From the IMG/VR virus record IMGVR_UViG_2600254917_000001, positions 1-64,000 of that record: a stretch of DNA of 64,000 nt; one strand, written 5' to 3'. Position numbers and translations under genes: made by a program. The first letter of the stretch is position 1. Each line of letters opens with the position of its first letter. This document shows positions 12,490-53,070 of the stretch, one piece after another. This DNA is from a virus. Its lineage: Duplodnaviria > Caudoviricetes. A model generated the notes under the pieces. The model ran no database searches and was not told the origin of the DNA. It was given only the letters and a program-made list of their open reading frames with translations.

Positions 12490-12550
12490 GCAATCATTAA
12501 ATATGCATCAAATGTTCATTATGAATATCTTTAATACATATTTAATATAG
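12490..12550. repeat. 11-bp-phased ATGCAT-like box array
   Basis: AATCAT 12492, ATGCAT 12503, GTTCAT 12514, ATATCT 12525, ACATAT 12536. Confidence 0.6.
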
Positions 12551-12632
12551 GAAAGATGAGCGTAGTTAAAGTTTTTTTAAAGGGCCGGGGCTTAGTTAGC
12601 CCCGGCACCTAAGTACGTTTCAAGCCGTTCCG

Positions 12633-12716
12633 CTACTTCAGAAATGACAAGATCAGTTGCAATGCTGCAACGATGAATTCGAGTACGACAACTATCGTAC
12701 TGATGATATTCACCAC
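12633..12716 (-). CDS. Type I toxin, TisB-like (27 aa MVNIISTIVVVLEFIVAALQLILSFLK)
   Basis: Hydrophobic peptide sharing IVAALQL with TisB; GAGGAG SD in a hairpin; TTGCCA-N17-TATACT promoter at ~12906-12934; terminator 12579-12610. Confidence 0.85.
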   Translation of the reverse strand: MVNIISTIVVVLEFIVAALQLILSFLK

Positions 12717-13049
12717 GTCCTTCTCCTCTTGAGAGGAGCGCGAACTCTTCAGCTTAGCCTCTAATCGCCTGTCCACTGAAGTTTCACTGTGTTAAGAGAT
12801 ATGTTTCGCACTCCTTATCCAGGCGCATGCAGGCACCACCCTGAATGCCAGGACTTGAAATCTGAATAGAAGAATCGACAAGGGGGCTATCTCTTAGCCT
12901 CGCCAGTATAGGACTCTCTGCGATGGCTGGCAATGCATTGATTATATTGATTATTCATACGCCTCGCGAATGAGTTTCTCTAATTCATTACACTTTGCAA
13001 ATAAAGTGATCCACTTTGTTTTTTTATGTAGGTGGCGTATACTACTTGA

Positions 13050-13160
13050 CGTGTTAAGAGATATGTTTCGCACTTCTAAAGGCCTGAACTAACTCGATTC
13101 ACCATCTTGATATGTTCAAGCCAAACAAAAAAACCACCGCACACCACGGTGGTTTTTTTG
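13050..13160 (+). ncRNA. Divergent antisense antitoxin sRNA (IstR-like)
   Basis: 24-nt GTGTTAAGAGATATGTTTCGCACT (13051-13074) is identical to 12789-12812 in the toxin leader; TATACT -10 just upstream; ACCACCG/CGGTGGT poly-T terminator. Confidence 0.8.
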
Positions 13161-13199
13161 TATCTTAAATACATACTTAATACATATTAACTACATTTT

Positions 13200-14240
13200 T
13201 TATATGTCTTCTTTTGTAATCTTGAGTGCCTCTGTCAGCGGCTTGTCTGCCAGCTTAGCTCCAACAGATTCACCTATCTCCATGCGGTAGTTTTCCATTT
13301 TATGAGCGTCAGCCTTCGAACAAAGGAATTTAGCCCAGTTGTAAATGTCACTGGGGAACCATGAATTTAAGCTGGAATCTATGTATTCCTCGCCATTAGT
13401 AGCAAGCTCATGAGGATGATCGCAAAAACCATATGAACGCGGTGGAACAGTTGGCACCAAATCACCAGTTCGGCGCACCTGAGTAGGAAAATTGTCGAAA
13501 GCATTCAGATAAAATCCTGCATCTGCATACCTTGGAGCTCCAAATAAAAACGCTGTTGTTGGCCACTCCTGTATTAGATACTTCGATATAGCTGCCACAG
13601 CTCCGCCCAATGAATGGCCAGCAAGAACAACGTGTTTGATGTATGAACGTTCAGCTGCAGGAATAGCGTCCAAAACGCGCTTTGTTATTCGAATGGCTTC
13701 TTCAGCAAAACCACTGTGTACTCCACCAGATAAAACCTTCTTATCTTCAATGACGCAATGGTCAAACACATGATGCTCAGATTTACGGTGGGCTGAATCA
13801 ACTCGAACAAGTTCAGCACGAATATTAACCTTCCAATCAAACAAAAGTGCAGTGCCGCGAAACCCAACAAACATGATCCCATTGATTACAACCCCAACCG
13901 CTACAATCCCAGCAGATGAGGTAACGAAAGGTTTCGGTAGATCTGCTTCGCTGAAAGCTTGTAAGACGTTAGCTGCCCCTCGGATACCCTTATCCACCAG
14001 CGTCTGATAACCAGAACTGGGGATTCTATAGAGCTTCGCGCGTTTACGCTTATCGACTTCCCAATCAGGTACCAAGTGGTAAGACATCTCGGCAAAAAGA
14101 GCGGCAAGATATCTAAGCTCTTTTGCATTAACGTCGAGAGGGTGAGACTGTGTAATACTAAGCGCTCGGATAAGCGAATGAACTTCATTGAATGCGTAGT
14201 CTTCCCATTTATCGTTTTTATCATCCGTATTATCTGTCAT
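13200..14240 (-). CDS. Lipase class 3 (alpha/beta hydrolase) cargo protein
   Basis: VGFRGT, GHSLGG, FGAPR, GDLVPTVPP and C-terminal His. Confidence 0.85.
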   Translation of the reverse strand: MTDNTDDKNDKWEDYAFNEVHSLIRALSITQSHPLDVNAKELRYLAALFAEMSYHLVPDWEVDKRKRAKLYRIPSSGYQTLVDKGIRGAANVLQAFSEADLPKPFVTSSAGIVAVGVVINGIMFVGFRGTALLFDWKVNIRAELVRVDSAHRKSEHHVFDHCVIEDKKVLSGGVHSGFAEEAIRITKRVLDAIPAAERSYIKHVVLAGHSLGGAVAAISKYLIQEWPTTAFLFGAPRYADAGFYLNAFDNFPTQVRRTGDLVPTVPPRSYGFCDHPHELATNGEEYIDSSLNSWFPSDIYNWAKFLCSKADAHKMENYRMEIGESVGAKLADKPLTEALKITKEDI

Positions 14241-14334
14241 AGAAGTTTTCTCCTTTTGCTGTGTTTAAGCATTATCGACATAAGTCCCAAGATATTGAAT
14301 GCGCTAATTAGGCGTAGAGCTCCTCAAGTCATGA

Positions 14335-14425
14335 GTACGCATCCTAATAAAATATTCAAGAACATTACTCCACATGCATTAAGTAATCATTCCATACATA
14401 TCATGCATGCATTAAATGAACACTT
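14335..14425. repeat. 11-bp-phased ATGCAT-like box array
   Basis: ATGCAT 14374, AATCAT 14385, ACATAT 14396, ATGCAT 14407. Confidence 0.6.
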
Positions 14426-15182
14426 CAGATAGCGCTTTAAACTGGCACAGATAGAAATGTGGCTGAGTAGATCGCGGGTTACCCGGCGCGGTCAGGTTCT
14501 TGCCGTACTCCATCCCCTTGGCAGTCAGGCACCAGTAATACTTCTCGCCCCGCGTGCTGCTCCGCGTCTTCTGCTCGACAATCCCCAGCTCAGCCAGGCG
14601 GACGTAGGCCTTCTGTGCTGACATCTTAACCCCGTGCTCCACAAGCAGCTGGCGGAGGCTGGCCGTTGGTTCGCTACTGCCTCCGGTGGCATCGGGCGGC
14701 GCATCGATGGCGTAGCCTGGTAGCAGGTCCGGTAGCCCAGCTGCGCTTTGCAGTTTTCGCAAGCCTGCCAGCACGCTGCTATCCGATATGTGGAGTAATT
14801 TTCTGCTCACTTCCAGCAGCGCGCCCCCAGCTGCGATCGTGTCGGCCGCGCTGGTGGATAAAGACGGTACCGGCGCTGGCGCGGGTTGCTGCATCGACTC
14901 CAGCTTATCCACCAGCGTACGGCGTACGGCTTTAGACTCGCGGGCGGCGACGCGCAGGGCTTGTTTATGCGAAAGAGTAATGACGTCTACAGGTCGCCCT
15001 CCATTCTCACCTGAGGGTTTTACACTTTTTGTGTAAAACTCCCCTTCCAGCTCATCTTCAACCTTCTCAAGAAATTTATTATTACGGATGTTGGGCTCCC
15101 CGTACTGCTTCCGGGCTTCGTTTACCAGCTTCAGCAGCTCCTGAGTATCGATAAAGCCGTTTGTCATCCTGGTCATCATCAT
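14412..15182 (-). CDS. Antirepressor/Rha-like DNA-binding protein (copy 1)
   Basis: ALRVAARESKAVRR N-domain; C-domain (LTAKGMEYGKNL..P..TQPHF) near-identical to 51368-52108. Confidence 0.8.
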   Translation of the reverse strand: MMMTRMTNGFIDTQELLKLVNEARKQYGEPNIRNNKFLEKVEDELEGEFYTKSVKPSGENGGRPVDVITLSHKQALRVAARESKAVRRTLVDKLESMQQPAPAPVPSLSTSAADTIAAGGALLEVSRKLLHISDSSVLAGLRKLQSAAGLPDLLPGYAIDAPPDATGGSSEPTASLRQLLVEHGVKMSAQKAYVRLAELGIVEQKTRSSTRGEKYYWCLTAKGMEYGKNLTAPGNPRSTQPHFYLCQFKALSEVFI

Positions 15183-15797: not shown

Positions 15798-15969
15798 ATT
15801 CTATAGGTGTGCACAGGCACAGACACAAAAAAAGACGCTAACGCGTCAGTGTCGTCGTATACATAAAACGGGACGCCAATCCCGGCACCAGATTTTGCTG
15901 GTGCCCTATTACGCTACTCGACCGAAACAGGCGTAGCAAGGGCTTTTTTACGTGGCGACACTGCGTCAC

Positions 15970-15986
15970 ATATCCTACTAAACATT
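15970..15986. promoter_or_regulatory. Putative C1-like repressor operator
   Basis: ATATCCTACTAAACATT; five near-identical copies in window. Confidence 0.7.
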
Positions 15987-16080
15987 ACATAAAATGCATA
16001 GTAAGAGTTCATTATAAATATCTTCAATGCATTCTCCATGCATATCAAATATGCACCGAGCATGCCTAACACATATTTTA
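15980..16080. repeat. 11-bp-phased ATGCAT-like box array
   Basis: ATGCAT at 15994, 16027 and 16038, all in one 11-bp phase. Confidence 0.6.
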
Positions 16081-16204: not shown

Positions 16205-16384
16205 TCTGGGATGACAGCGGGAACAAACGAGCCGGTATTCTCCCACCTTCCCCACCAGCCAGCATTGATGCCAGACAAAGGATGCACATTAAACACATAC
16301 AAGATACATATCTGATATTCACACCATAAATCCATCCAGACACCTCCATGCTGGCCGAGCGTGCCGGATTGAACGATAAAAAAG

Positions 16385-16401
16385 ATATCCCACTAAACAT
16401 T
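16385..16401. promoter_or_regulatory. Putative C1-like operator
   Basis: ATATCCCACTAAACATT. Confidence 0.7.
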
Positions 16402-16500
16402 ATCAAATGATGACATCATGCATTTAAAAGTCATCCTTAATGCATTTCATATGCATTCAAAATACATATTAGATAAGCAATTCATGAGCATTATGTAAAC
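16395..16500. repeat. 11-bp-phased ATGCAT-like box array
   Basis: ATGCAT 16418, AGTCAT 16429, ATGCAT 16440, ATGCAT 16451, ATACAT 16462. Confidence 0.7.
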
Positions 16501-26116: not shown

Positions 26117-26195
26117 AATGCATACGAGATACATCATCAATGAACATCAAATGCATATGACGCATGCTTCTGGTATGTATCTATAGGTGTTTAGC
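26115..26195. repeat. 11-bp-phased ATGCAT-like box array
   Basis: ATGCAT 26118, ATACAT 26129, ATGAAC 26140, ATGCAT 26151; ATGCTT 26164, ATGTAT 26175. Confidence 0.6.
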
Positions 26196-26441
26196 TTTTT
26201 CCGCTATAAAATCCTGCCACTCCGAAAGCGTGATAGCGCGAACCTTATCGACAATCCGGCCGTCTTGCATCTCTCTCAGCCAGATATCGTCGCCGATTTG
26301 CTCACCGTTAGCATCGACTTTAAAAAGGGTAAAGAGCCCCTTATAAGCCCCAGAATAACGAATGCCGCACCCATACTGTGCGGCAATTTCCTGTAGATGG
26401 CGCATCGTCGCGAAACGAGCTCGCGGGTCTACATTAAGCAT
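26181..26441 (-). CDS. lxc: C1 co-repressor Lxc-like
   Basis: TMRHLQEIA..., VR....EW aligns with P1 Lxc; order darB-ulx-lxc. Confidence 0.7.
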   Translation of the reverse strand: MLNVDPRARFATMRHLQEIAAQYGCGIRYSGAYKGLFTLFKVDANGEQIGDDIWLREMQDGRIVDKVRAITLSEWQDFIAEKAKHL

Positions 26442-26865
26442 TGGTCGCCCTTAATTCGATCTCCATATCGTCACTGTAATAGGGATAGACCTCTTCATCA
26501 ACTTCAGGCTTGGTTGGCAGCAAATGCTCGGCGTTGTAGTAGTTACCGGATTCAAGACGCTCGTTGGAGTAGAGCGTCGCGGCAATGAGTGTTAGCGCTT
26601 CTTCCTCGTAGCAGTAGAGAGATGCAACCGGACCATCATTCTCGCGACCAGCAACCGTGTAACCACGCGCCAGCATCATTGACTTGATAGCGGGCCAGAA
26701 TGGCCCGTATGAGCGGTAACAGCGCAAATCCTTGCCGAGCCGGGTGTTGAGCACGGCCATATACTCATCTACGTACTGTTCCTCACTACGTCCTTCCAGT
26801 GCTTCATCCATGAAGCCGGAGAGGTACTCCTCTTCCGGCATGATCGTGTCGCGTAATGTTGTCAT
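26434..26865 (-). CDS. ulx: Ulx-like Dar system protein
   Basis: YRSYGPFWP.IK, ALTLIAATLYSNER. Confidence 0.85.
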   Translation of the reverse strand: MTTLRDTIMPEEEYLSGFMDEALEGRSEEQYVDEYMAVLNTRLGKDLRCYRSYGPFWPAIKSMMLARGYTVAGRENDGPVASLYCYEEEALTLIAATLYSNERLESGNYYNAEHLLPTKPEVDEEVYPYYSDDMEIELRATNA

Positions 26866-26874
26866 TTCAAATCC

Positions 26875-29800
26875 TTAAGCTCTGTGAATCACTGAGAGAA
26901 CATTGTTGAGATCGTGCTTGGTAGAGATAAGCCACCATGAGCCTTCGAACTCTTCGCCCGCATTTTCGCCATTATAGTATTTCGCGTCGAAACGCTGCTT
27001 TAAATCATTTTTAGCTTTGAAGAGGGCGCCTTTTTTACCAAATGGATCATGCAGACCATAGCACTCACCAGCCTCGAATTTATACATTACGCGGCCACGC
27101 CAGCGGCTCAGCACGGCAGTGGAGTTCGTTTTGATCTGAATACCAGATTCGTCAATCGCTGACTCTTTCGTAATGGCCTCAGTTTCCAGCTCAACCTTTT
27201 TGGCACTTACCTCAGCCATGTCTTCGGCCGTTGTTTTGCCCGCTCTTTCCCGCGCATGCTGAATAAGCTCCGGCGACTTCTCTTGCGTGACCTGATCCTT
27301 AATGTGATCGTAGGTAGCATAGGCAAAGTCGCGCTGAGCGATATAGTCAGCAAGGAGATCGACGGTAACTTCACGTTCTTCAATGACGCCCATGTTTACC
27401 GCATCGGCCAGGAACACGTAATACGAAATGCCCGAGCCAGCGTATGTACTATAGAGTGAATGAAGTGGGGGAGTGGTCGTTACCAGCTTTTGAATGCGGC
27501 CCAGGACATAGTCACCGATGCCTTTCACTTCCGCTTCAAAGAGACCGTGCCGGGTCATTGCCATATCGCGAGCTGCGATCTTGCAGTTCTCCGTCGCCGT
27601 CATCTGCAGCTTATCCGCTGCGCGAGTAATAACCGCTACAAAGTCATCCCTGTTTGTGTATTCCCCAGGGATAGATTCACGCGCCAGGCGCTTGAAACCA
27701 TCAGTATTTACGGTCGGCAGTTCGCCGGTATCGAGGAAAGTTTGTACCTGCGAGCGGCGATCCCCAGACATATATTTATCGCTGCTGGTATCGTACGCGG
27801 AGATAAAGTCAGCCATCCAGGTTTCGATCACTGTCGTATCGGCAGTTTCGCCGTAGTCATTGATGCGGGATTTGTAATCCTCCCCAAACAAGGCCTTAGC
27901 AAACGCAGGCAGATCCTGTAGCGCGCCAGACTCACTACGGAACCACGCAGCAACACGTGTCTTCAATACATTGTCCGAGCCATCTGGATAGATAACATCG
28001 TTTGCCAGACGCTTAAGTGCGGTACCTTCAAGCACTGGAGAGCGACCGTAAATCGAATGGCTTTTCCCTAAAATTTTGAAGCCCTCAGCAGCAAAATAGG
28101 GTACACCGCCATCGCTGAATGTCAGTAAACCGTCCTGAATGTACTTGTGGAATTCCTGCTTTGTGATGCGGTCAGCAACGTCCGCCATCGACACGCCCCC
28201 GATCAACCATTGGCGGAGGGACACCTCGTCTTCCGTTACTGAAACTGGGTCGGGAAGCTTATCTACCTCGATAACGCGTGTTGCACCGATAACAGATCGG
28301 TTAGTCGTTTTGGCATAAATCATCTCCATTTTTGCCGTACGCGCATCGAAATCGAAGCTTTGGATGCGTGACAGGCAATTTGGATCTTCAGTTGCAGAGC
28401 TGTAACCAATATGGAAGGTTTGGCCAACACGGAAAGTCTTGCCTGTAATAGACGAGACCATATATTTGTCGCCGCGGTCGAGCATGTCACGATCCACATC
28501 AATCAATCCCTTCGCGATAGCGGTCTCAATGGCGGGGCGGAGACGTTTCGCTTCACCCTCAGCATTCTTCAGGCGCTTAACCTTACGCTCCTGCTTATTG
28601 AAGCTGCTTTTAGCTTTAGTGAAACCGGCTTTAGCATCTTCAAGATAGTCGCGGGCATTCCTGAGATCTCGTTCGGCCCCCATCACAACCCACCGTTCCT
28701 CACTATTCTCACTCACCTGCTTCAGTTTCGTCTGAGCATTAACAAATCGCTCCTGGCAGCTCTGAAGCCGATCATTGGCATCCGACATCGCGCGTTGAAG
28801 CTGCTGAAGCAGTTCATTCTCTTTCGTCACATCACAATTAATCGCGTGCTGGGCCTTCAGGAAGTTGCTCAGGTCGATATCCGCACGCTTTTTCGCGGCA
28901 GCGCGAGCTTTCTCCTGGGCCATTTCCACCAGCTGAGCATTGCGTCGGGCGCGCTCTTCAGGGTCACGAGCCAGCATCAGCTTCATTTCAACGGCATCAT
29001 TGGCATCGGCGTTAGCCATGCGTGATTCGCTGCTGGACATCAGATTGCCGATCCAGTCTTTTTTGCTCTGAAGCGCGGACAGGCGGAAGTCATCGAATGA
29101 ATCTTTGCCGCAGTAATAGTGCGCACGCACGCGATCGTTGGTCGACCCTACGCGCGCGCCACGCCCGTTTCGCTGTTTGATACTGCCTGGCGTCCACGGC
29201 AGAGTGAGGTGGTGAATATCGGCCGTTCCGAGGTGCAGGTTAATCCCGACTTCGGCCTTTTTGTTGCATATGACAATACGCGTGCGGCCTTCATTATAGT
29301 CAGCCGCGATGGACTCGAGGCCGCTAAGGCTTACCTCATTCTGCGCGGCGATATAGGCATCATAGAGCGCCTTCTGCTGATAGTACTTATCCAGCTGTTC
29401 TGGTGAAGCATCTTCTTTCGGCTCAGGCGGCGATTTGACGCGCTTCGGCTTACGCCCTTTCTTGCCAGCATCGGCGACCGTCGTGGCGTTAAGAATGCCA
29501 ATTTCGGACTCGTCGATACCCAGGCCCGTAGCAATAATCCGGCGTAACTTACCGTGCTGGCTTTTCTCATCAGAGAAGATGATTTGCTTCCCATCGTTAA
29601 GGCCTGCTTTGAGGTTCTCAATGAGGGCTGAGTATTTTGGCGGTACCGGGTGTGACAGGTCAGAACGGGATATGCCGAACTTCTCAAGCCGTGAAAGCAC
29701 CTCGTTTTCGTACGACTCGGGTACAACCAGCTGCGCGACCTTGCCTTTTACCGTTACGGTTGCATCGACCGGCACCGCCATTTCATCCTCTTCGCCGTCC

Positions 29801-32800
29801 TCATCCTCTACAACCTGAAGGCAGGCCGGCAAATCGTTAACCAGAGCATCCAGGCCCTCTTTGTAAATGGCCGGGAAGTTGAAGGTCATCTGACGGCGAT
29901 ACAGGTCCATATCAGTGGTAACGCGGTCCATGTCACGAATGATGGAGAAGGTGGAGTCATCTTCCGGGTTAATTTCATTGCCATTGGCATCAAGGAGAGG
30001 AGCATCGTCTGTATTCCCTCCAAGCACCTGCGAGAGCGGGTTATTGACGTTAGAGAGCGCATCGGCGCGGGCACGCAGCGTTTCATAAACCTCCATCTGC
30101 TCACGCGATAGCGGCACTTCAACGCTTTTCTCATCCAGTTCAGGGATCTTAACGTCACTAGAAACGTCTTGCGATGTCTTCATCACGGTCCAGCGATGGA
30201 ATATACCGCGTAAACCATCAAGGTTTTTGAAGCCCACCAGCCCATCTTTGACTTCGACCTTGCCCGACAGCTTCTGAACCGTGACCGGTGCGATCTGGCC
30301 GAACACCCGCACGAAGTCATCGGGGGTGAAGATCCCCATGCGATTCCACTCCCTGGTCTCAACCACGTGGCTGAGCATGTTGAATGCATCGATTGGGGAG
30401 TTAACGAGCGGGGTAGCCGTCAGCATCACACAGCCGCGACCGTTGTTTTTAGCCATGAGATAAGCGTTTTTCACCGCCATATCACGTGCTGACTGAGCTA
30501 CCGGCGCGGTTGGTAAATACGCCAGACGAGAAGACTCCAGACCAGCGGAGTAGCTGTTACGGTAGTTATGGCCCTCATCGACGATCACGTTGTCGAAGTT
30601 CATGTCTTCGAAGTAGGGGTACTCATGCTCTTTCTTTGAACCAGTGTCGGAAGCGTCATCCAGAATGCGGGATTTCTTGTTGGCATCGCGATGCTTTGTG
30701 CCGTCGAGATTCACGCGACCAGCTTCAGCATTGGCATAGAGGACGTCGTAAGCATGATCCCTTATCGACTCTTCGCGCATCGGGATGCGTGCATACTGCT
30801 CTTTCGTCATGAATACGTGGCGCCAGTTGCTCTGTGGAATAGCATTCATGCGCTCTTTGATCGTGTCTGCACTCGCTTCGGTTACAGCGTCACGATAGAG
30901 AACCTGGCCCGTATGTGGATTGATTTTCTGTTGCCCGTTTTCATCCAGCACGGGTACCTGGCGGATTGAGCCATCATCATTACAGACAATGTCGAGCCCA
31001 ACGAACAGCATGTTCTTGAATGAGGCTTCGTCATAAAAATCTTTCGCCTCGTGATACAGCTTTTGGTAGACCGATTTAGGCACAACCGTTGCGGTTCTTT
31101 TTGAACGGCCGTTCTCAAAGTTATACGCTTCCAGGCCGAGCCCTACCGTGGTTTTCCCAAGGCCGGTACCGAATCCGCAAATGCCTTTGCCATCCTCTGA
31201 TAGGCGGCGGATTTCGCTATTCTGATAGCCAAACGGCACTGTTTTCCCCGAGATCCCCTTCAGTTCAAGGGGTGCGTCCGACTGTTCGTAAGGGATGTAG
31301 GCGTTAAATGCGTCGTTATATTCTTGAACGAGATCCCCAATCTCATCGTGCTGACGGATCCAGTCATTAAAGCCGCTCTCAAGCAGGCGGATTCGCTCCA
31401 TATACTGGTTGGCAAAGACGCCGCGGGGTTTATTGCCGTTGAGATAGCCTTCCAGCTGAGCGAGGAAGGGATCCTTTTTCGAGACGCGCTTATAGACGGA
31501 CTCCATTTGCCCGGTCTCTTTGTTTTTGCTGACGACGGTGCCGTATCGGTAGCCAGCAAACACCCCTTCAGCGCCTTTGTACGACTGGTCTGAAACCAGG
31601 GTGCCGTTTTCGACCTGAATCTCTTTCACGTACTGCAGATCGGTGTACCCCTGCTCGCGCAGGTATTCAAGAATGAGCGAGCGGTCGAACCATCGTGCGT
31701 TCATGTTGAAGTCGATAGAATCAACATCCGTCCATTTCCGCTTACGCTTAATCTCCTCCAGTTGGCGTATGTAGTTTTGCTTGATAGCCTCGTTGTTCTC
31801 AACGCCGATAGCAGCCATCAGGCTTTTCGTCATCGCACTGATATCGCCGCTGGTGGCGCGGTCCATAGGAACCAGGTGCCCATCACCGGTGATAGCGATC
31901 GTCTCATTGCTCGCCAGCATTGCCAGCAGCTCGTTGTCATCGTCAGGAGCATCACCGGTAAAGACTTCCCGAAACTCCTGGAGGTCAATGGGTACCAGGT
32001 CAATCTGGCTGAAGAGGTGGTTTACAACCTGAGACGCGTCTGACGAGTTGAACGCGAGAACGGGGCGGGTATCGAGCGTACCGGCAATGAGCGGCGCCAG
32101 CTCGCCATCTTCGGTGATAGCTGTTTTAAACTTCAGCCAGTCAGCAGCATTCTTGCCCCGCACGCGTCCGGCTTTCCCTTTGCCCGGGTGCCCGTGCTTT
32201 TGGTACTCGGCTGAGACCATGCGGGCAATATCCTGCCGGACATCGTTAATATCGTTCTCAGGGTACCCTTGGGCCATCCAGTCCTGCATCACGGCGATAC
32301 GGGAACCTATAAGCGCACCGCGGAAAACGCGCTCGCGAAGCTCTGCGGGCTGGCTGGCAGCAAACTGAATAGCATTTTTATGTGGGGCCGGTACGATTTC
32401 AGGAAAGCGGGAGTAAACGGCCTGCAACTGGGACCAGGAGAGCCCCATGACAGCTGCGGAATTTGTATCGGAGAACAGGGCCTGTAACTCTGTGTAGCTT
32501 CCGGCGCCGTACTGGGCAACATTGAGATCCTGCTTAGGGATAGAGTTATCCAGGACCCAACGCTCCCCGTCATAAATATGCCAACGATCGTTAATCAAGC
32601 GGCGATCACCTTCAACGGCCAGAATCACTGTTGGCTCGGTCACGCTGAGAAGGTCCCAGTTAATGCGGCTATGGAACTTGTTGAGAAGCTTCGTCTTGAT
32701 CTCGCTGCTGGTGATAGTTTCGTTCTTAACGGTCATGCGATAGCCTTCCAGCACCTCGCCGTGCACGAAACGTTTACCGTCTTGCTCAAACCATTTCCCG

Positions 32801-33726
32801 TTGATGTACGTGTCCCAGAGCACCATAGCTTTTTTGAGAAGCGTGTCCTTTTCTCCAACCATGCGCTGCGCGAGATCTTCTGGATGTTTACGCAAAACCC
32901 AGACATCTACAGCTGTGGCCGTGCCGTTCTCTTCAAACGTGCCGGAGGGGAGGCGATGAGCGCCAAGAAACTCCGCTTTGCGGGAGACCTGCAGGCGCAG
33001 CCGTTTATGAGAGCTACCGCTGGTCATGCCGTACGGAACGATGATGCAGACGTACCCGCCAGGCTTGACCTTATCGAGCAGGCGCAGGATGAAGTAACGC
33101 CCGATATTGCGCTCACCAGCATAAGCCGGATCCATGTTCGCGAACTCGCCCCGGTTATCGCCAAACGGGACGTTACCCACTACCCCGTCAAAGATGTCAT
33201 CCGGCGACGATGCAGCCAGCCTTTCGAACGCGCTGGTGGACACTTTGTCTTCAGGGTGGAGGAGGCGGTTAATACGACTGGAGATCGGACTGATTTCAGT
33301 CGCCGTCATGATAGCCCCAGCCGGTTTCGTTTCGTGGAATACGCCGGTGCCGGAGGATGGCTCAAGCCAGTTACCGGTTGGAGAGCCGTATAACTGCATC
33401 AGATCCCACATACCTTCCGCAACATATTGCGGTGTGTAATATTCGTGTTCATTTGCCCCAATACCGCCTTCCCCCGTATAGCGCGCCAGGATCTGACGCT
33501 GTTCGTCAGTAAGCAGCGTGCCATCCGGCAACTGGTTCAGCAGCTCGATAGCGGCGGCATTTGCCGTTTTACGCTCACGCTCAATCGACACACCGGCGCG
33601 CTTTGTGACGCCAAACGTGGCTGGTGCTCGTTTGATTGCTTGCATTAGCGCACGGCAGACTTCGTCAACCGTTGTCGCTGATTCGATCATGTTTGTGGCG
33701 TTGTTAAGCGCCTTTGTCGTTCTCAT
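26875..33726 (-). CDS. darB: DarB antirestriction protein (MTase + SNF2 helicase)
   Basis: LEPSSGTGVF, VVGNVPF, GTGLGKT, VDEGHNY, MLTATP, QRNGRGAR. Confidence 0.92.
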   Translation of the reverse strand: MRTTKALNNATNMIESATTVDEVCRALMQAIKRAPATFGVTKRAGVSIERERKTANAAAIELLNQLPDGTLLTDEQRQILARYTGEGGIGANEHEYYTPQYVAEGMWDLMQLYGSPTGNWLEPSSGTGVFHETKPAGAIMTATEISPISSRINRLLHPEDKVSTSAFERLAASSPDDIFDGVVGNVPFGDNRGEFANMDPAYAGERNIGRYFILRLLDKVKPGGYVCIIVPYGMTSGSSHKRLRLQVSRKAEFLGAHRLPSGTFEENGTATAVDVWVLRKHPEDLAQRMVGEKDTLLKKAMVLWDTYINGKWFEQDGKRFVHGEVLEGYRMTVKNETITSSEIKTKLLNKFHSRINWDLLSVTEPTVILAVEGDRRLINDRWHIYDGERWVLDNSIPKQDLNVAQYGAGSYTELQALFSDTNSAAVMGLSWSQLQAVYSRFPEIVPAPHKNAIQFAASQPAELRERVFRGALIGSRIAVMQDWMAQGYPENDINDVRQDIARMVSAEYQKHGHPGKGKAGRVRGKNAADWLKFKTAITEDGELAPLIAGTLDTRPVLAFNSSDASQVVNHLFSQIDLVPIDLQEFREVFTGDAPDDDNELLAMLASNETIAITGDGHLVPMDRATSGDISAMTKSLMAAIGVENNEAIKQNYIRQLEEIKRKRKWTDVDSIDFNMNARWFDRSLILEYLREQGYTDLQYVKEIQVENGTLVSDQSYKGAEGVFAGYRYGTVVSKNKETGQMESVYKRVSKKDPFLAQLEGYLNGNKPRGVFANQYMERIRLLESGFNDWIRQHDEIGDLVQEYNDAFNAYIPYEQSDAPLELKGISGKTVPFGYQNSEIRRLSEDGKGICGFGTGLGKTTVGLGLEAYNFENGRSKRTATVVPKSVYQKLYHEAKDFYDEASFKNMLFVGLDIVCNDDGSIRQVPVLDENGQQKINPHTGQVLYRDAVTEASADTIKERMNAIPQSNWRHVFMTKEQYARIPMREESIRDHAYDVLYANAEAGRVNLDGTKHRDANKKSRILDDASDTGSKKEHEYPYFEDMNFDNVIVDEGHNYRNSYSAGLESSRLAYLPTAPVAQSARDMAVKNAYLMAKNNGRGCVMLTATPLVNSPIDAFNMLSHVVETREWNRMGIFTPDDFVRVFGQIAPVTVQKLSGKVEVKDGLVGFKNLDGLRGIFHRWTVMKTSQDVSSDVKIPELDEKSVEVPLSREQMEVYETLRARADALSNVNNPLSQVLGGNTDDAPLLDANGNEINPEDDSTFSIIRDMDRVTTDMDLYRRQMTFNFPAIYKEGLDALVNDLPACLQVVEDEDGEEDEMAVPVDATVTVKGKVAQLVVPESYENEVLSRLEKFGISRSDLSHPVPPKYSALIENLKAGLNDGKQIIFSDEKSQHGKLRRIIATGLGIDESEIGILNATTVADAGKKGRKPKRVKSPPEPKEDASPEQLDKYYQQKALYDAYIAAQNEVSLSGLESIAADYNEGRTRIVICNKKAEVGINLHLGTADIHHLTLPWTPGSIKQRNGRGARVGSTNDRVRAHYYCGKDSFDDFRLSALQSKKDWIGNLMSSSESRMANADANDAVEMKLMLARDPEERARRNAQLVEMAQEKARAAAKKRADIDLSNFLKAQHAINCDVTKENELLQQLQRAMSDANDRLQSCQERFVNAQTKLKQVSENSEERWVVMGAERDLRNARDYLEDAKAGFTKAKSSFNKQERKVKRLKNAEGEAKRLRPAIETAIAKGLIDVDRDMLDRGDKYMVSSITGKTFRVGQTFHIGYSSATEDPNCLSRIQSFDFDARTAKMEMIYAKTTNRSVIGATRVIEVDKLPDPVSVTEDEVSLRQWLIGGVSMADVADRITKQEFHKYIQDGLLTFSDGGVPYFAAEGFKILGKSHSIYGRSPVLEGTALKRLANDVIYPDGSDNVLKTRVAAWFRSESGALQDLPAFAKALFGEDYKSRINDYGETADTTVIETWMADFISAYDTSSDKYMSGDRRSQVQTFLDTGELPTVNTDGFKRLARESIPGEYTNRDDFVAVITRAADKLQMTATENCKIAARDMAMTRHGLFEAEVKGIGDYVLGRIQKLVTTTPPLHSLYSTYAGSGISYYVFLADAVNMGVIEEREVTVDLLADYIAQRDFAYATYDHIKDQVTQEKSPELIQHARERAGKTTAEDMAEVSAKKVELETEAITKESAIDESGIQIKTNSTAVLSRWRGRVMYKFEAGECYGLHDPFGKKGALFKAKNDLKQRFDAKYYNGENAGEEFEGSWWLISTKHDLNNVLSVIHRA

Positions 33727-33739
33727 AGGCTCACTCGTA

Positions 33740-33760
33740 GCGGTGCACAATTGCTAGATT
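33740..33760 (+). promoter_or_regulatory. Putative late promoter
   Basis: GCGGTGCA-N7-TAGATT upstream of portal. Confidence 0.7.
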
Positions 33761-36541: not shown

Positions 36542-36687
36542 CCAGCACCGCCCAGATCGTTAAACGGTTTGGGCGGTCAAACCACTCCATCGCAACCCCT
36601 TTCAGCACCTGCCAATCAATAATCTCTGACCATTTTTATACCGCTTTATCATTGCGTTACAGAAAGCATGCGCCGCCACACTTACAA

Positions 36688-36704
36688 ATATCTCACTAAA
36701 CATT
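36688..36704. promoter_or_regulatory. Putative C1-like operator upstream of repL
   Basis: ATATCTCACTAAACATT. Confidence 0.7.
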
Positions 36705-36871
36705 TGATCATAAATCACGATCCGGTGTAGGATCCGATCGTCTTAAGAAACAACAAAGGTTCCAGGTATATTCTGGGTAATAGAAAATAAAAAGGGCCAG
36801 CAAAATCGCTGACCCTTTGATGAATGTCATGTGTAACGAACATGCATTCTTTACATCCAAATAAAATTAAC

Positions 36872-38544: not shown

Positions 38545-38635
38545 GTATGTTTAGAAAAAAAGATGTTTTTTAGCATTCGCCATGCATCTATAAAAATCAT
38601 GAAATAATCATTTGATATGTATCTTGCATGCTTTT
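38545..38635. repeat. 11-bp-phased box array upstream of parA (candidate centromere/operator)
   Basis: TAGCAT 38571, ATGCAT 38582; AATCAT 38595, AATCAT 38606, ATGTAT 38617, ATGCTT 38628. Confidence 0.6.
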
Positions 38636-38663
38636 AAAATATCGAAAAACTAAGGAGGCAACG

Positions 38664-39305
38664 ATGCCAATTCTTGCAATTGCTCAGGGTAAGGGCGGAG
38701 TCGGTAAGACGACGACGAGCTTTAACGTCGCATGTGAGTTAAAGCCAATCAACACAGTTGATATCGACATCGCTGGTGGTATTTCCATCATCAACAACTT
38801 CCGTGCCGACAACAAAAAATTACCGATTACGATCCCCCAGACGACTGAAGAGCTCATTAATCTTCTCCGTGAAGGAGAGTCACCAGATAAGCTTGTTGTA
38901 GTAGACTGCGGTGGTTTTGACTCTCAGTTCACTCGTATCGCCATTGCAGCAGCTGACCTTGTGATTGCGCCAGCAAACGAGACATTCCTCGATCTGGTAG
39001 GGACACAGGAATTTAACCAGACGTTGCGTGAAATCAGCGATCAGGTAGGCAGAGAAATCGTCGGCTACGTGTTCTTCTGCAAAGTGCCGTCATCCAAAAA
39101 GCACTTCCCGAATATGGAAGACATGATCGCAAACTCTTCGAATTTGAAGTTGCTCGAACACCGCATAAGCGCGTTGAACGAACACCATATTAATCAGTTC
39201 CGTGGTCTTGGCGTTACTGAGCTCCCGGCAACAGCCAGCTCACGCGCAGGGAAAGAAGTGCGGGCATTATGCGAAGAAGTGCATCAGCTACTTCATCGCC
39301 AGTAA
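38664..39305 (+). CDS. parA: Type Ib ParA/ParF ATPase
   Basis: Deviant Walker A KGGVGKTT, no N-terminal HTH, AAADLVIAP. Confidence 0.9.
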   Translation: MPILAIAQGKGGVGKTTTSFNVACELKPINTVDIDIAGGISIINNFRADNKKLPITIPQTTEELINLLREGESPDKLVVVDCGGFDSQFTRIAIAAADLVIAPANETFLDLVGTQEFNQTLREISDQVGREIVGYVFFCKVPSSKKHFPNMEDMIANSSNLKLLEHRISALNEHHINQFRGLGVTELPATASSRAGKEVRALCEEVHQLLHRQ

Positions 39306-39317: not shown

Positions 39318-39632
39318 ATGGCCAAACAGCCAAAAGTAAAAAACTGGGATTTGATGAGTCGCATTGGCAGCTCCGCCCCGCTTAAAGAAAACGGGCAGAA
39401 TTCAGCCCCAGCTGCAGAAACACCGGCCCCTGCAGCCGAACCAGCACCAGCAAAGACCGTTGAAGGCCCTAAGGTACAGCGCAAAATGCTTGCGGCTATG
39501 CCAACTGAGTACGTTGAAGCCCATGAGCAGCTGCGCGTAAGCGGCCGTACGGCGATGAACCTGTCTTCATACATCTATGAAGCAGTTCGTGAAAAGCTGC
39601 TGCGTGACGGTGCTTTTGAAGCGAAGAAGTAA
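39318..39632 (+). CDS. Centromere-binding protein (disordered N-terminus, ribbon-helix-helix-like C-terminus)
   Basis: 104 aa directly after parA; NLSSYIYEAVREKL. Confidence 0.75.
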   Translation: MAKQPKVKNWDLMSRIGSSAPLKENGQNSAPAAETPAPAAEPAPAKTVEGPKVQRKMLAAMPTEYVEAHEQLRVSGRTAMNLSSYIYEAVREKLLRDGAFEAKK

Positions 39633-39679: not shown

Positions 39680-40270
39680 TTATTTTTTCTTGTCTTCTAT
39701 TTGTTCAGAATCTGGCTGATCTTGTTCCCGTTCTGTACGCTTGGCGCGTCCAATCGGATACTTCCGCAACACAAAGATGCAGGCTACAGCAACGATCACC
39801 CCTATGATGGTTATCGCCGCGCCATCATGGTCATTGATTGCTAAGTATGTGGCAGCAAAAATTGCCGCTAAGGTTGATATAACCCCACATACCTGGCCAC
39901 GTCGATCACGGTTTACAGAAGCGTCTAACACTTTTTCTTCCATTCTCTGACGATGCGCCATTTCCCTTTCAGTTAGACTGAAGATGCGATCAGCAGAGCC
40001 AGGTAAGATTTCTTCGTAATGCTTCAGATGTCGTGGATGCGGGAATGGGCCGGAGAAGGCCTCATGCGCAATCATGAGATGCTGAATTTCAGGGCGGTTC
40101 ATTGATTCAAGAAAAACATGAGGTTTTGATAAAACCTCATGTGTAAATTCTTCGACCTCAGCTTCAGTGGTGCAAGCTTCAGCGGCTTGAAGGTCATCGC
40201 TTGGTTCTTTTGTAGAGTTCTGCGTATTTATCGAATGTGCATCCGCTTGATGTTGTGCTTCCATCTTCAT
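39680..40270 (-). CDS. DUF2335-like membrane protein
   Basis: FSGPFPHP..L..YE.I.PGSADRI..HR plus two TM helices. Confidence 0.8.
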   Translation of the reverse strand: MKMEAQHQADAHSINTQNSTKEPSDDLQAAEACTTEAEVEEFTHEVLSKPHVFLESMNRPEIQHLMIAHEAFSGPFPHPRHLKHYEEILPGSADRIFSLTEREMAHRQRMEEKVLDASVNRDRRGQVCGVISTLAAIFAATYLAINDHDGAAITIIGVIVAVACIFVLRKYPIGRAKRTEREQDQPDSEQIEDKKK

Positions 40271-40691
40271 AGACCTTATAACCAAATTGCTCTAAAAATT
40301 TCTCTTTTATGGATTTTGTTGATTTCAATTTCTTGGTTAACTGTTCTTGAACAGTTCGTTCTTGAAGATCGCATACAGCTTTATTCCAGAATTTCTCTGC
40401 TGCATTGCACTCACCATCTCCGCGAGGCGTATTACGAATTTCGTTTACACTGCAGGTTTTATACTCACGCCCGTGATAAACCGGCTCGTAATGATTGAGG
40501 GCCTCGTAGAATACAAATACTCGGTTCAGGTCATCAGCTACAGTCTGCAGGTCTTGATGTAAGCAACTGGGATACCCTCGATGAGAATCAAGAATATGGT
40601 AATAATTGCTCGTTTTGGTGATTCCCAGAGGAGTACTGGCCTCGATCGCTTCATCGAGATTGATGCTGTGTTTCTTCTTAAGAAGCGTCAT
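40194..40691 (-). CDS. Hypothetical protein coupled to repA
   Basis: GAGGA RBS right after the repA stop. Confidence 0.6.
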   Translation of the reverse strand: MTLLKKKHSINLDEAIEASTPLGITKTSNYYHILDSHRGYPSCLHQDLQTVADDLNRVFVFYEALNHYEPVYHGREYKTCSVNEIRNTPRGDGECNAAEKFWNKAVCDLQERTVQEQLTKKLKSTKSIKEKFLEQFGYKVYEDGSTTSSGCTFDKYAELYKRTKR

Positions 40692-42292: not shown

Positions 42293-43624
42293 CTACGTAG
42301 CTCCCAAGTTAAAAAGTGTGCCCGGCTGCACTTCAGATAATCTTTTTTCTACTATATCAATAACATCACTTAGCACCAGAGGCTCAACAGCAAACATATC
42401 ATTAACAGCTGCCCCTGATTTTTTCAGCTCTTCGTTGATGACTTCTGCCATGATCTTGAAGGCAGCTCCCATGCGCTTTGCAGATCTATTATTGCGACTG
42501 ATGAAGATCGCTAGGGCTTTAACTTCATCCGACACATCCTCAAATAACCCTAATTGCTGAACAAACTCTTCGACTGATTGTTCATTGCTCTTGGCCTGCC
42601 GAACGAGGTCAGCTGCGTCAACGAGCGAGCGTAACGCCTGTTTATCAAGGCTATCTACAGCTTCGATTGATGAGCAAATATCACCAACAGTCTGCCGGTG
42701 AACTTCACCGGATAAATACTGCATATCGATAAAAGCTGGGGCTGCTACGTTCAAAGCCGTAAGGATATTGCGTATCTCGGGATCGGGTTCTTCCGCAACC
42801 AGCTTCACCAGCATTTCGTTTTTATAGGCTTTGGCAAATATGGCGTTTTGCATTCTATCCAGCAGCTGGCGGGTAGGGCGCCCATCTGCTGTCACAAGTC
42901 CGGCTGTCGCCGTATCTCCAAGTGAAGCCAGGAACGCCTTGATAAAACCTTCGTTGGTTTTAGCCAACAGGTTGCCGTTCTCAGCCGGAGAAAAGAGGGC
43001 CATTACGTCGGGCGTCATATTCTCGGCGTCAGCATAGGCCTTTTCGCTCGCGGCCATATCCTGGAGATCTGATATGTTGCTGTCTTTGGCAAATTGCACG
43101 CGGTCGACGTTATCCAACCGTACCCGGACCAGGACCGGATTCTGCTTCGACGAGATATCGGAAGAGTTAATGCCGTAAAGGGTGGCGTTATCGATCAGAT
43201 ACTGCCGGTAGTTATCAGCTTTTCCTTCGGCGTACGCTTTTAGGATCCCCATCGTACGCCCGTTTCCTGATTCCACTACGTTGTCATGACCCACGATAGG
43301 GGAGCCGTGGCTCGATAAGCCTGAATCAGTCAGGCGCTGCGGCATAATGTTGTTCGAGATGGCGTTGACCTGCAGAATGCTGCTTTTACGCGTACGATCC
43401 CGCGGCTGAAGCTCTGGCGGGAAATTAGGGTTAATGCGGCCGTCGAGCATGTTGGACATGATCAGATCAGTGGCCTCAACCACTTTGAAAGCAGTCTTCA
43501 CCTCTTTGCCTTTTGGTGTAACGATATAAGCGACTCGACCTGTGTGCGTCTGGGTAGCCGTAGTAAGCAACGAGAGCACTTCGGCTACGCTCTGAGCCAG
43601 TTCTATTTGTTGATAAATAACCAT
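42293..43624 (-). CDS. ddrB: DdrB-like protein (ParB-like domain)
   Basis: ELQPRDRTR, GSPIVG.DNVVESGNGRTM, NAIFAKAY. Confidence 0.8.
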   Translation of the reverse strand: MVIYQQIELAQSVAEVLSLLTTATQTHTGRVAYIVTPKGKEVKTAFKVVEATDLIMSNMLDGRINPNFPPELQPRDRTRKSSILQVNAISNNIMPQRLTDSGLSSHGSPIVGHDNVVESGNGRTMGILKAYAEGKADNYRQYLIDNATLYGINSSDISSKQNPVLVRVRLDNVDRVQFAKDSNISDLQDMAASEKAYADAENMTPDVMALFSPAENGNLLAKTNEGFIKAFLASLGDTATAGLVTADGRPTRQLLDRMQNAIFAKAYKNEMLVKLVAEEPDPEIRNILTALNVAAPAFIDMQYLSGEVHRQTVGDICSSIEAVDSLDKQALRSLVDAADLVRQAKSNEQSVEEFVQQLGLFEDVSDEVKALAIFISRNNRSAKRMGAAFKIMAEVINEELKKSGAAVNDMFAVEPLVLSDVIDIVEKRLSEVQPGTLFNLGAT

Positions 43625-43644
43625 AATAAATTTAACGTTATGTG

Positions 43645-43661
43645 ATATCCTACTAAACAAT
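43645..43661. promoter_or_regulatory. Putative C1-like operator upstream of ban
   Basis: ATATCCTACTAAACAAT. Confidence 0.7.
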
Positions 43662-43662
43662 A

Positions 43663-43683
43663 TCAATATCATAATTGCACCGC
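43663..43683 (-). promoter_or_regulatory. Putative late promoter for ddrB
   Basis: GCGGTGCA-N7-TATTGA. Confidence 0.55.
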
Positions 43684-43730
43684 TGCTGGTCATCCGCACG
43701 CGGGTGCGTATACTGCATAAAAAAACCGAG

Positions 43731-50164: not shown

Positions 50165-50245
50165 AATATGTAAAGGTTGATGCACATAAAATATGTATCT
50201 TATGCATTCAATATAAATCTAAGGTGCATTTGATAGGTGTATTTT
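50165..50245. repeat. 11-bp-phased ATGCAT-like box array
   Basis: ATGCAC 50180, ATATGT 50191, ATGCAT 50202, ATAAAT 50213, GTGCAT 50224. Confidence 0.6.
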
Positions 50246-50447
50246 GTGATTGCCACAAAATAATAAAGTGTTAGTATAGGATTATGTGTCGCCGTCCGCC
50301 GCTTGACCTTCATTAACGGCTTCGAGTAGCGTGATAAAGCACCAGCAAAATCTGGTGCCGGGATTGGCGTCCCGGAAATGGTTACAGGCGACACAGACGC
50401 GCCAGCGTCTTTTTTTTTGTGTCAGTGCTCTTGCACACCTATAGAAT

Positions 50448-50530: not shown

Positions 50531-50583
50531 TGAATTGGCGTTCGTGTTGATGGTTATCATGACCGTTACAGGAGACTGCCTTC

Positions 50584-51063: not shown

Positions 51064-51371
51064 AATCTATCCACGTAAACTTTCATGGTACCGAGCTGTT
51101 TATCATCGAGCACAACGGCGAACCGTATACACCGATGAAACCGATCGTTGAAGGAATGGGGCTGGACTGGAAAAGTCAGTTGGTTAAGTTTAACAAGCGG
51201 TTTAACTCAACTATGGTGGAAATCACCATGGTTGCAGCAGACGATAAATCCCGCGGTATGATCTGTCTTCCGCTGCGCAAGCTTGTTGCGTGGCTAAACA
51301 GCATTAGCGCGAACAAAGTAAAGCCGGAGCTACGAAACCGCCTGCTGCAATGCCAGGAGGGTATCGCATGA
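51060..51371 (+). CDS. P22 Ant N-terminal domain antirepressor
   Basis: FHGTEL...EHNGEPYTPMKPIVEGMGLDWKSQ, CLPLRKL..WL.SI. Confidence 0.85.
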   Translation: MKSIHVNFHGTELFIIEHNGEPYTPMKPIVEGMGLDWKSQLVKFNKRFNSTMVEITMVAADDKSRGMICLPLRKLVAWLNSISANKVKPELRNRLLQCQEGIA

Positions 51372-52108
51372 TGCTGGCAACCGAAGTGCGAATGACAAGC
51401 AGGGAGATTGCCGAACTAACGGGTAAACGACACCCAGATGTGAAGCGTGATATCGACACTATGCTCGTTGAGCTCAATGAAGATGTGAGCAATTTTGCTC
51501 ACATCTACTTGGACAGCATGAACCGGCAGCAAACTGAGTTCAGTCTCGATCGCCTGCATGTTGAATGCCTTCTTATGGGCTACAGTGCAACCCTGCGCAT
51601 GAAGGTCCTTAAGCGCCTGAAAGAGCTCGAATCGCTCCAACAAGATGCGCCGGTGCCGTCGGTCCCCAGCAGCGCAGCCGACACGATCGCAGCTGGCGGA
51701 GCTCTGCTGGAAGTGAGCAGAAAATTACTCCACATATCGGATAGCAGCGTGCTCGCGGGGCTACGCAAACTGCAAAGCGCAGCTGGGCTGCCGGACCTGC
51801 TCCCGGGTTACGCCATCGATGCACCACCGTCCGCCACGGGCGGCAGCAGTGAGCCAACGGCGAGCCTTCGCCAGCTGCTGGTGGAGAACGGGGTGAAGAT
51901 GTCCGCGCAAAAAGCGTATGCCCGCCTGGCGGAGCTGGGGATTGTCGAGCAGAAGACGCGGACCAGCACCCGCGGCGAAAAGCATTACTGGTGCCTGACG
52001 GCCAAGGGCATGGAGTACGGCAAGAACCTGACCGCGCCGGGGAACCCCCGCGCTACCCAGCCGCACTTCTTCACTTCGCGTTTCACTAGACTGGTTGAGC
52101 AGCTGTAA
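51368..52108 (+). CDS. Rha-family regulator with antirepressor-type C-domain
   Basis: MTSREIAELTGKRH.DV.RDI; C-domain shared with 14412-15182. Confidence 0.85.
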   Translation: MMLATEVRMTSREIAELTGKRHPDVKRDIDTMLVELNEDVSNFAHIYLDSMNRQQTEFSLDRLHVECLLMGYSATLRMKVLKRLKELESLQQDAPVPSVPSSAADTIAAGGALLEVSRKLLHISDSSVLAGLRKLQSAAGLPDLLPGYAIDAPPSATGGSSEPTASLRQLLVENGVKMSAQKAYARLAELGIVEQKTRTSTRGEKHYWCLTAKGMEYGKNLTAPGNPRATQPHFFTSRFTRLVEQL

Positions 52109-52232
52109 TCAGTGAATGGTGCCGGGCTTAGGAGTAACGAAGCCCGGCCTTCGTAAATTAAACTGGTAGGTTGAAAGGCAAGGGCAAGTTGGCCAATATG
52201 GGCTGTTGATAATTCATAAGGAGAATGCCGTA

Positions 52233-52946
52233 ATGGATTGGCCCAAAAAGTATAACGGAATTGGTGATACTGTTCGCCGTGCCGCATTAAATGAATTTGA
52301 TGTCGAAGCCATACTGAAAACAACTTTACTCCCTGGACAGCAAAAGACCGCTTATCACGGAGGCCTGATAACTACTGATTATTATGTATTTCAATTTCAA
52401 TCCATCACTCATCCAAATCAGTCAGGATCATTTTGTTGTGGCGAACATGCTGCTCAAGGGTGGTTCAACTTAACATTCCAAAACACGGAATTGATCCCCT
52501 CTTACAACCCCATTACTGGAGCCAGCAGGGGCGGCGGGGCTGGTGGTGGAAATGGCGGGAACGGGAACGTCCAAAACCCTGTAAACAGGGATATGCGTAA
52601 CCTGATAAAGTGTCTTATGACTTACATTTCCTTCACAGACAACACGCTCAACAGTTCTGGTGGTGAGTCAAGCGCAGTAAGAGTGTTGAATGGTCTCCTA
52701 CAGAACATAAATAATCCTCCAACTGTTTCTCAAATCCGAAGCGTGAACACCATTCTTGCAAAAACTTTTCAAAATGCTAAATATGTAGCGCTTAATATTA
52801 AAACCTATTCTGACTTGGTTGCGCATAAAGAACAACAACACGGCGTCACTATTAAGAAAATAAATGTAGCTCCTTTCAATTTGCACATTCAGAATAACAG
52901 GAATAATAGTCCAACATACACCTACCCACATCCGGCATCATTCTAA
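52233..52946 (+). CDS. Low-GC hypothetical cargo protein
   Basis: AAGGAG RBS, Asn/Gly-rich linker, CCGEH motif. Confidence 0.65.
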   Translation: MDWPKKYNGIGDTVRRAALNEFDVEAILKTTLLPGQQKTAYHGGLITTDYYVFQFQSITHPNQSGSFCCGEHAAQGWFNLTFQNTELIPSYNPITGASRGGGAGGGNGGNGNVQNPVNRDMRNLIKCLMTYISFTDNTLNSSGGESSAVRVLNGLLQNINNPPTVSQIRSVNTILAKTFQNAKYVALNIKTYSDLVAHKEQQHGVTIKKINVAPFNLHIQNNRNNSPTYTYPHPASF

Positions 52947-52984
52947 ACATTGTGTGCAGGTGGTGGTTCAAGCGACCCACCACC

Positions 52985-53070
52985 TATGCATACCCGCATT
53001 ATCCTCATATTTTATGCATCTCAAGTGCTTACATGATATGCATTATAAATGCATATTGAATGCATTAGTG
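52985..53070. repeat. 11-bp-phased ATGCAT box array
   Basis: ATGCAT 53014, GTGCTT 53025; ATGCAT 53038, 53049, 53060. Confidence 0.7.

Follow-up and report, generated by a model that had tools for sequence, protein, structure and literature searches.

Which protein, if any, reads the phased ATGCAT-like hexamers that are scattered through a P1-like phage-plasmid, and what would it do there? The window, that is, the whole stretch of DNA analysed here, is the first 64 kb (64,000 nucleotides) of the 95,253-bp, single-contig genome recorded as IMGVR_UViG_2600254917_000001. The backbone of this element is P1-like (a darB-like gene of 2291 codons, portal, head-processing and tail genes, c4/antirepressor cassettes and a cre-like region), whereas its plasmid functions are unlike those of P1 and comprise a Rep3 initiator, DnaB, a small ParA and a 104-aa ParA partner. 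An initial annotation of the window had described about ten dispersed arrays of hexamer boxes with an 11-bp period and had proposed that the partner binds them as a distributed centromere that might also regulate genes or mark hotspots of cargo insertion. As described below, the arrays are real and conserved, and they are probably cooperative binding sites for the 104-aa partner, a predicted ribbon-helix-helix (RHH) protein encoded immediately after parA in what resembles a type Ib partition cassette.

Hexamer arrays with an 11-bp period in intergenic DNA

On reading, all ten sites of the initial annotation proved to hold ATGCAT-like boxes (ATGCAT, ATACAT, ATGTAT, AATCAT or GTTCAT) spaced 11 bp apart. 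When up to one mismatch is allowed, box-to-box distances peak at 11, 22 and 33 bp (12, 9 and 7 pairs, respectively), with a secondary series at 13, 24 and 35 bp. A position was scored as phased if at least three of five boxes stood in 11-bp phase. The 95-kb genome holds 17 such positions, compared with 0.12 in genome simulations from a third-order Markov model and 0.03–0.08 in intergenic-only Markov simulations of orders 1, 3 and 5 (maximum 5 in 500 runs), so the periodicity at lag 11 is significant against every random-sequence model used. The cleanest control is a scan of periods from 6 to 22, which returned 17 matches at 11, 8 at 22 (twice that period) and zero at all other periods. Twelve arrays were found genome-wide, ten in the window (A1–A10) and two beyond it (A11 and A12, genome positions 64467-64507 and 93071-93145). 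All of them are intergenic (12.6 kb of the genome in total), and the 82 kb of coding DNA is free of arrays, which bears out the intergenic confinement that had been claimed. Five arrays (A4, A6, A7, A9 and A10) passed the strict test; three (A1, A3 and A8) are of moderate strength; and A2 (13160) and A5 (16280) are weak, with two boxes each at up to one mismatch plus weaker in-phase boxes. The arrays in the window are as follows, with "C1-type operator" denoting a separate motif that is treated further below.

A1, 12479..12545: AAGCAT, AATCAT, ATGCAT, GTTCAT, ATGAAT and ATACAT, with a tail gene ending on one side and a small toxin-antitoxin-like locus on the other.
A2, 13157..13200: weak here, with ATACAT, ATACAT and CTACAT at 11 bp, after a terminator and abutting the 3' end of the lipase gene.
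A3, 14372..14415: 132 bp upstream of the lipase gene (13200-14240, minus strand).
A4, 15994..16067: over a predicted minus-strand promoter (TGGAGA-16-TATAAT) from which transcription would cross a C1-type operator and enter c4-ant cassette 1.
A5, 16282..16322: weak, with ATGCAC, ACACAT and ATACAT, adjoining an orphan c4-like scaffold.
A6, 16418..16467: ATGCAT, AGTCAT, ATGCAT, ATGCAT and ATACAT, overlapping a predicted minus-strand promoter (TTTAAA-18-GATAAT) and adjoining a C1-type operator at ~16384-16402.
A7, 26118..26180: between two convergent gene ends, after a terminator, abutting the 3' end of an 86-aa gene in the lxc position.
A8, 38582..38633: ATGCAT, AATCAT, AATCAT, ATGTAT and ATGCTT, overlapping the parA promoter.
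A9, 50180..50229: its end lies upstream of a predicted promoter (TTGCCA-16-TAGTAT) into c4-ant cassette 2, ~20 bp from the -35; the -10 of this promoter overlaps a C1-type operator (~50264-50283).
A10, 52986..53065: the best array, with five perfect ATGCAT boxes, three in strict register, past the hairpin that closes gene 52206-52946 and with a C1-type operator (~53248-53268) ~185 bp downstream.

These positions agree with the neighbourhoods given in the initial annotation: an array (A8) stands directly upstream of parA, and arrays bracket both the lipase gene (A2/A3) and the two c4-ant cassettes (A3/A4 and A9/A10). Three arrays contain a single register step of 13 instead of 11 bp (A4 at 16038-16051, A7 at 26151-26164 and A8 at 38582-38595); CAT is kept in the boxes before the step and ATG in the boxes after it, so that each of these arrays may be a facing pair of sub-arrays like those of other partition sites. 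Outside the boxes and the adjacent C1-type operator, the arrays have at most 18–36 bp in common, and so they are not copies of one dispersed repeat.

The array clusters (12.5–16.5, 26.1, 38.6, 50.2–53.0, 64.5 and 93.1 kb) are ~12 kb apart for a large part of the circle, the exception being a gap of 29 kb. This spacing may simply reflect where the intergenic gaps fall.

Conservation of phased boxes in related plasmids

The closest records are two Enterobacter kobei plasmids, which show near full-length synteny with this genome at ~70–90% (mostly 75–80%) DNA identity and encode partner proteins 97–98% identical to the 104-aa partner. They are the only close relatives in the collections searched, and they share one partner type. 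P1-group plasmids come next, with ~65% identity across a quarter of the structural query. No match was obtained from a megablast of the par/rep region against the phage collection or from a blastn of the par locus against complete Escherichia coli genomes.

Phased pairs of boxes number ~10 in each E. kobei plasmid, 1 in P1 (inside darB) and 2 in an unrelated Yersinia plasmid; P1, which is without the 104-aa partner, has no phased ATGCAT arrays. The arrays of the relatives occupy orthologous intergenic sites for A2, A3, A4, A7, A8, A9, A10 and A11. A2 is stronger there, with four boxes; A7 is present in both relatives with different spacers; and phased ATGCAT-type boxes cover the parA promoter in all three genomes. 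Spacers and flanks often cannot be aligned and individual boxes have moved, while the phased boxes persist. Retention of the phase through such turnover of the spacers is the pattern expected of binding sites under selection.

The E. kobei relatives carry an extra small gene and a second lipase-family gene (28213-29733 in NZ_CP156932.1), both absent from this genome. The extra lipase-family gene of these relatives has its own upstream ATGCAT array (NZ_CP156932.1, 28597-28680).

A par cassette with a predicted ribbon-helix-helix partner

A8 overlies the start of a cassette with the following features.

38612..38640, plus strand: predicted parA promoter, TTGATA-17-TAAAAT, 10/12 matches.
38664..39305, plus strand: parA, encoding a 213-aa Walker ATPase of type Ib size.
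39318..39632, plus strand: gene for the 104-aa ParA partner, starting 12 bp after parA.

The parA start at 38664 has a GGAGG at 38654 and agrees with the 213-aa annotation in the relatives; a longer open reading frame from 38628, which begins inside the promoter, is probably not used. ParA carries the sequence GKGGVGKT and matches the Pfam families AAA_31, CbiA and MipZ. The NCBIfam model ParA_partition covers its full length but scores below the cut-off (67.9 versus 180 bits). The N-terminal DNA-binding domain of type Ia proteins is absent.

The N-terminal half of the partner is disordered and bears a conserved APLKEN-type motif; its C-terminal domain (residues ~52–100) is predicted to be RHH. 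The protein has no sequence match in Pfam, NCBIfam or the PDB. In an alignment of 29 family representatives, a variable linker joins the conserved N-terminal motif to a strand followed by two helices with a GxT turn between them. Folding from the single sequence was poor, with a predicted local distance difference test score (pLDDT) of 58, and the model built from the 29-sequence alignment places residues 55–100 at pLDDT >90 as an extended strand and two helices. Foldseek against the PDB gave no match; in an unfiltered fold search, the best 50 matches were nearly all RHH proteins (omega, ORF56, ParG, Arc and pCXC100 ParB), with Z values of 2.6–4.1. The model thus predicts an RHH protein.

The traits of a type Ib cassette are present, namely a small ParA, a predicted RHH partner directly downstream and an array over the par promoter; the partner gene is followed by a terminator and no second array. 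A P1-type (type Ia) ParB/parS system was rejected, since no large helix-turn-helix (HTH) ParB lies beside parA and ParA itself is not of type Ia architecture. A 468-aa protein with a ddrB-type ParB-superfamily domain is encoded at 42293-43699, between rep and dnaB, and is unrelated in layout.

The partner family and 11-bp arrays on other replicons

Remote homologues of the partner were found by tblastn beside small ParA genes on 1316 PLSDB plasmids, including IncI-gamma/K, and in 82 Vibrio phage records. We examined six replicons with distant homologues: one from Yersinia, one from Pantoea, two from Vibrio, a 34-kb E. hormaechei plasmid and an IncI-gamma/K plasmid. All six have hexamer boxes at 11 bp upstream of parA, each replicon with a box of its own, and further such boxes are frequent in the gap that separates parA from the partner gene and beyond the latter. 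Lag self-similarity, summed over 16 par-flanking regions from 8 loci with homologous partners, reaches 147 at lag 11 and 110 at lag 22, compared with 10–30 at the other lags. The residues of the partner's strand differ between plasmids with different boxes, and the only family-type boxes at the parA promoter of this genome and both its relatives are ATGCAT-like. Judged by these arrays around the par genes of its homologues, the family appears to bind 6+5-bp arrays, with one hexamer box per 11 bp.

Five of these six replicons were scanned completely. Arrays of their own box lie at the par locus, and two of the five have one possible extra array. In the lineage of this genome, par holds just one array of the twelve. 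What sets this phage-plasmid lineage apart is the dispersal: the proposal of scattered sites, as opposed to sites at the par locus only, holds here, while the five other replicons are essentially par-confined and P1 has none.

On the IncI-gamma/K plasmid (NZ_CP058304.1, 8586-10220), the ParA-partner pair is flanked by GGATAT/GGTATC boxes at 11 bp and is directly followed by a ParM/ParR-type cassette, which makes a double par locus. The partner is annotated there merely as hypothetical or as 'GroEL'.

An E. coli partner 61% identical to that of this genome is known as a protein, with RKTVAA in its strand where the present partner has RKMLAA, and scans of viral and metagenome contigs revealed no DNA relative for it; a genome-contig scan yielded only a spurious Pseudomonas match. 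An exact triple-box scan of viral contigs returned 19 loci, all of which were discarded as unrelated 11-bp repeats without ParA or partner homologues. Five unrelated viral contigs have short ATGCAT arrays at 11 bp, with no ParA or partner homologue within the stretch examined. The ParB of pESBL binds octamer repeats (PMC7602700) and shows no detectable relationship to the 104-aa partner.

Arrays and C1-type operators at c4 promoters

A separate asymmetric motif, GATATCnnACTAAACATTA, is present at ten sites that match the search core and as two variants (~43645 and ~77639). The sites lie at 15969-15987, 16384-16402, 36687-36705, 50264-50283 and 53248-53268 in the window and at 64515, 70465, 76993, 93054 and 93237 in the genome; seven copies are no more than 200 bp from an ATGCAT array. 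The motif fits the C1-type operator set of the phage. Its first copy in the window is given here.

15969..15987, plus strand: C1-type operator ATATCCTACTAAACATTA, adjoining A4 and distinct from the array.

That the arrays might themselves be single asymmetric ~17-bp C1 operators was ruled out, because GATATCnnACTAAACATTA fills that role beside the arrays and not within them.

All five c4 scaffolds (those at A4, A6, A9, A11 and A12) have a common layout, with the array on the -35 or upstream side, the operator on the -10 or early transcribed side, and then the c4 RNA. Promoters were called by consensus scans only. On these calls, the -35 of the predicted c4 promoter is overlapped by A4, A6, A11 and A12, and A9 lies just upstream of it, while A1, A2, A3, A5, A7 and A10 have no convincing promoter; A1, A2, A7 and A10 are located after gene ends or terminators. 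Binding at the c4 promoters would most simply repress them. In the cargo region from 12.4 to 16.5 kb, an array separates each unit from the next (toxin-antitoxin-like locus, lipase, c4-ant cassette and orphan c4).

A model for the arrays and its alternatives

We favour the reading in which the 104-aa partner binds the arrays cooperatively. One RHH dimer would occupy each palindromic ATGCAT-like box, since a palindromic hexamer suits a symmetric dimer, and the 11-bp spacing would place successive dimers on the same face of the helix, as we infer from known RHH-operator complexes. A8, at the parA promoter, would act as autoregulatory operator and centromere, and the other eleven arrays would provide extra docking sites. 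Five of these, beside c4/antirepressor promoters controlled by C1-type operators, would probably add a second layer of repression, and the remainder, by gene ends and cargo genes, would form centromere-like mass or pairing sites. For the original proposal that an RHH partner of ParA binds distributed sites, the distributed part stands, and the identity of the binder is well supported, if indirectly, by the predicted fold, by the 11-bp arrays of the homologues and by the ATGCAT-like boxes at the parA promoter. The proposal is thus supported in part; the centromere, regulatory and hotspot roles that went with it are putative.

Several points weigh against this reading. The parA-proximal array has one perfect box and is weaker than several of the dispersed arrays. 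The placement of own-box arrays at par in the five other replicons implies that dispersal is not a habit of the family. The structural matches have low Z values (2.6–4.1), as expected of so small a domain, a monomer of 50 residues from a dimeric fold. A convincing promoter is missing near about half of the arrays, so that a purely regulatory role cannot cover all of them, and a centromere-like or pairing role is plausible for some.

The alternative that survives best is that another DNA-binding protein of the phage-plasmid or the host, such as an activator or a second c4 repressor, occupies the dispersed arrays, with the partner acting only at parA and the shared box reflecting coincidence or competition. 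We know of no consensus site among the PhoB, ArcA and TorR-type host boxes or those of H-NS and Fis that fits a palindromic ATGCAT. The annotation of the relatives does include Rrf2-type and XRE-type regulators and many hypothetical proteins, and the fixed geometry of five arrays with a C1-type operator at c4 promoters resembles the work of a promoter-specific regulator. Moreover, StbA of R388, an HTH protein, binds (T/C)TGCATCAT repeats at 11 bp (bioRxiv 10.1101/2022.04.29.490116), and a TGCAT box at 11 bp is therefore not unique to RHH proteins. A different binder nevertheless seems unlikely to us. In three genomes the parA promoter lies under boxes of this type and period, homologues of the partner elsewhere go together with 11-bp arrays, and the palindromic hexamer suits the symmetry of an RHH dimer. 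No candidate for another binder was identified either, although the element's other small proteins were not screened for one.

The arrays could also be chiefly stretches of shared homology where modules meet, either produced by or serving recombination that reassorts cargo among related phage-plasmids, with binding secondary. Every unit of the 12.4–16.5 kb cargo region is bracketed by an array, the extra lipase-family gene of the relatives comes with an array of its own, and A1/A4 and A1/A2 have 18–22 bp in common beyond chance. Set against this, little sequence beyond the boxes is common to the arrays, A7 and A8 lie away from cargo borders, and the phase has been kept while the spacers turned over, which points to selection on binding geometry and not on homology; we consider this origin improbable. 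It is very improbable that the arrays are bent or UP-element-like DNA without a dedicated binder, in spite of their AT-richness, their helical phasing and the position of several upstream of promoters, because the conserved element is a specific G/C-containing palindrome and not A-tracts, several arrays stand at convergent gene ends, and the phasing does not arise in simulations of intergenic DNA by order-5 Markov models.

Binding of the dispersed arrays by the partner remains our preferred reading. It matters because a phage-plasmid has a single genome from which to run both its plasmid and its phage programme. If the partner also sits on all c4/antirepressor promoters, it would wire the two together directly and would account for the control of cargo modules by the plasmid state. 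In the fullest form of this reading, which we put forward tentatively and regard as doubtful, each c4/antirepressor promoter would have the partition protein as a second repressor, linked to copy number, and the twelve arrays would make up one distributed centromere. If true, a cell in which the partition protein is lost or titrated away would have both an unstable plasmid and released antirepressors, tying failed inheritance to prophage induction.

Comparison with known partition systems

The nearest system in protein class and logic is the type Ib delta/omega pair of pSM19035, in which omega is an RHH protein and there are three parS/operator sites of 7–10 heptads (PMC5016525). Both omega and the 104-aa protein (by prediction) are small RHH partners of a small ParA with several arrays per replicon as centromere and operators, and omega is among the best structural matches of the latter. 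They differ in that omega uses 7-bp heptads at three maintenance-gene promoters, as opposed to an 11-bp period and 12 arrays, half of them off promoters, and no sequence similarity between the two proteins is detectable.

R388 StbA is nearest in site design. It is a segregation factor and repressor with ten stbDR repeats at its own promoter and 2–5 at four others (bioRxiv 10.1101/2022.04.29.490116). The stbDR period is likewise 11 bp (9 bp plus 2 bp), and its box contains TGCAT. Unlike the predicted RHH candidate in the parA operon described here, StbA is a tri-helical HTH protein without a ParA, and all its sites are promoters in one region.

P1 is alike in its phage backbone (darB, portal, c4-icd-ant and C1-type operator logic) and unlike in its partition, with a type Ia system, one parS and no phased ATGCAT arrays; the arrays are also distinct from the 17–19 bp asymmetric C1-type operator. 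The par2 system of pB171 (ParA/ParB/parC1-parC2, type Ib) resembles the present cassette in gene order, small ParA, RHH partner (by prediction here) with a flexible N-terminal tail and array over the par promoter. ParF/ParG/parH of TP228, also of type Ib, is alike in these respects (PMC3130281). The arrays of TP228 and pB171 differ in being only at the par locus, and the ParG boxes in being tetramers with 4-bp spacers.

Plasmid-wide action of a partition protein has precedents in a different protein class. RK2 KorB, a partition protein with 12 operators and a plasmid-wide regulon, is a global regulator. Both KorB and N15 SopB are large type Ia HTH ParB proteins that act on single inverted repeats, unlike the phased arrays of this genome. 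N15 is similar in that partition-protein sites are scattered across a plasmid-prophage, with four dispersed inverted-repeat centromere sites, IR1-4 (PMC7205306). What appears new here is that a type Ib partner, predicted to be RHH and belonging to an unnamed family, goes together with a dozen phased arrays that are spread over a P1-like phage-plasmid and built into its immunity promoters. An unnamed but widespread family of ParA partners is thereby defined, and its apparent rule of one hexamer per 11 bp could help to annotate centromeres.

Neighbouring genes

A DUF2335 membrane protein and a small upstream gene are encoded at 39680-40691, between rep and the par cassette. At 26181-33750, the order of the darB-like gene (2291 aa), a 143-aa gene and the 86-aa gene mirrors darB-ulx-lxc of P1.

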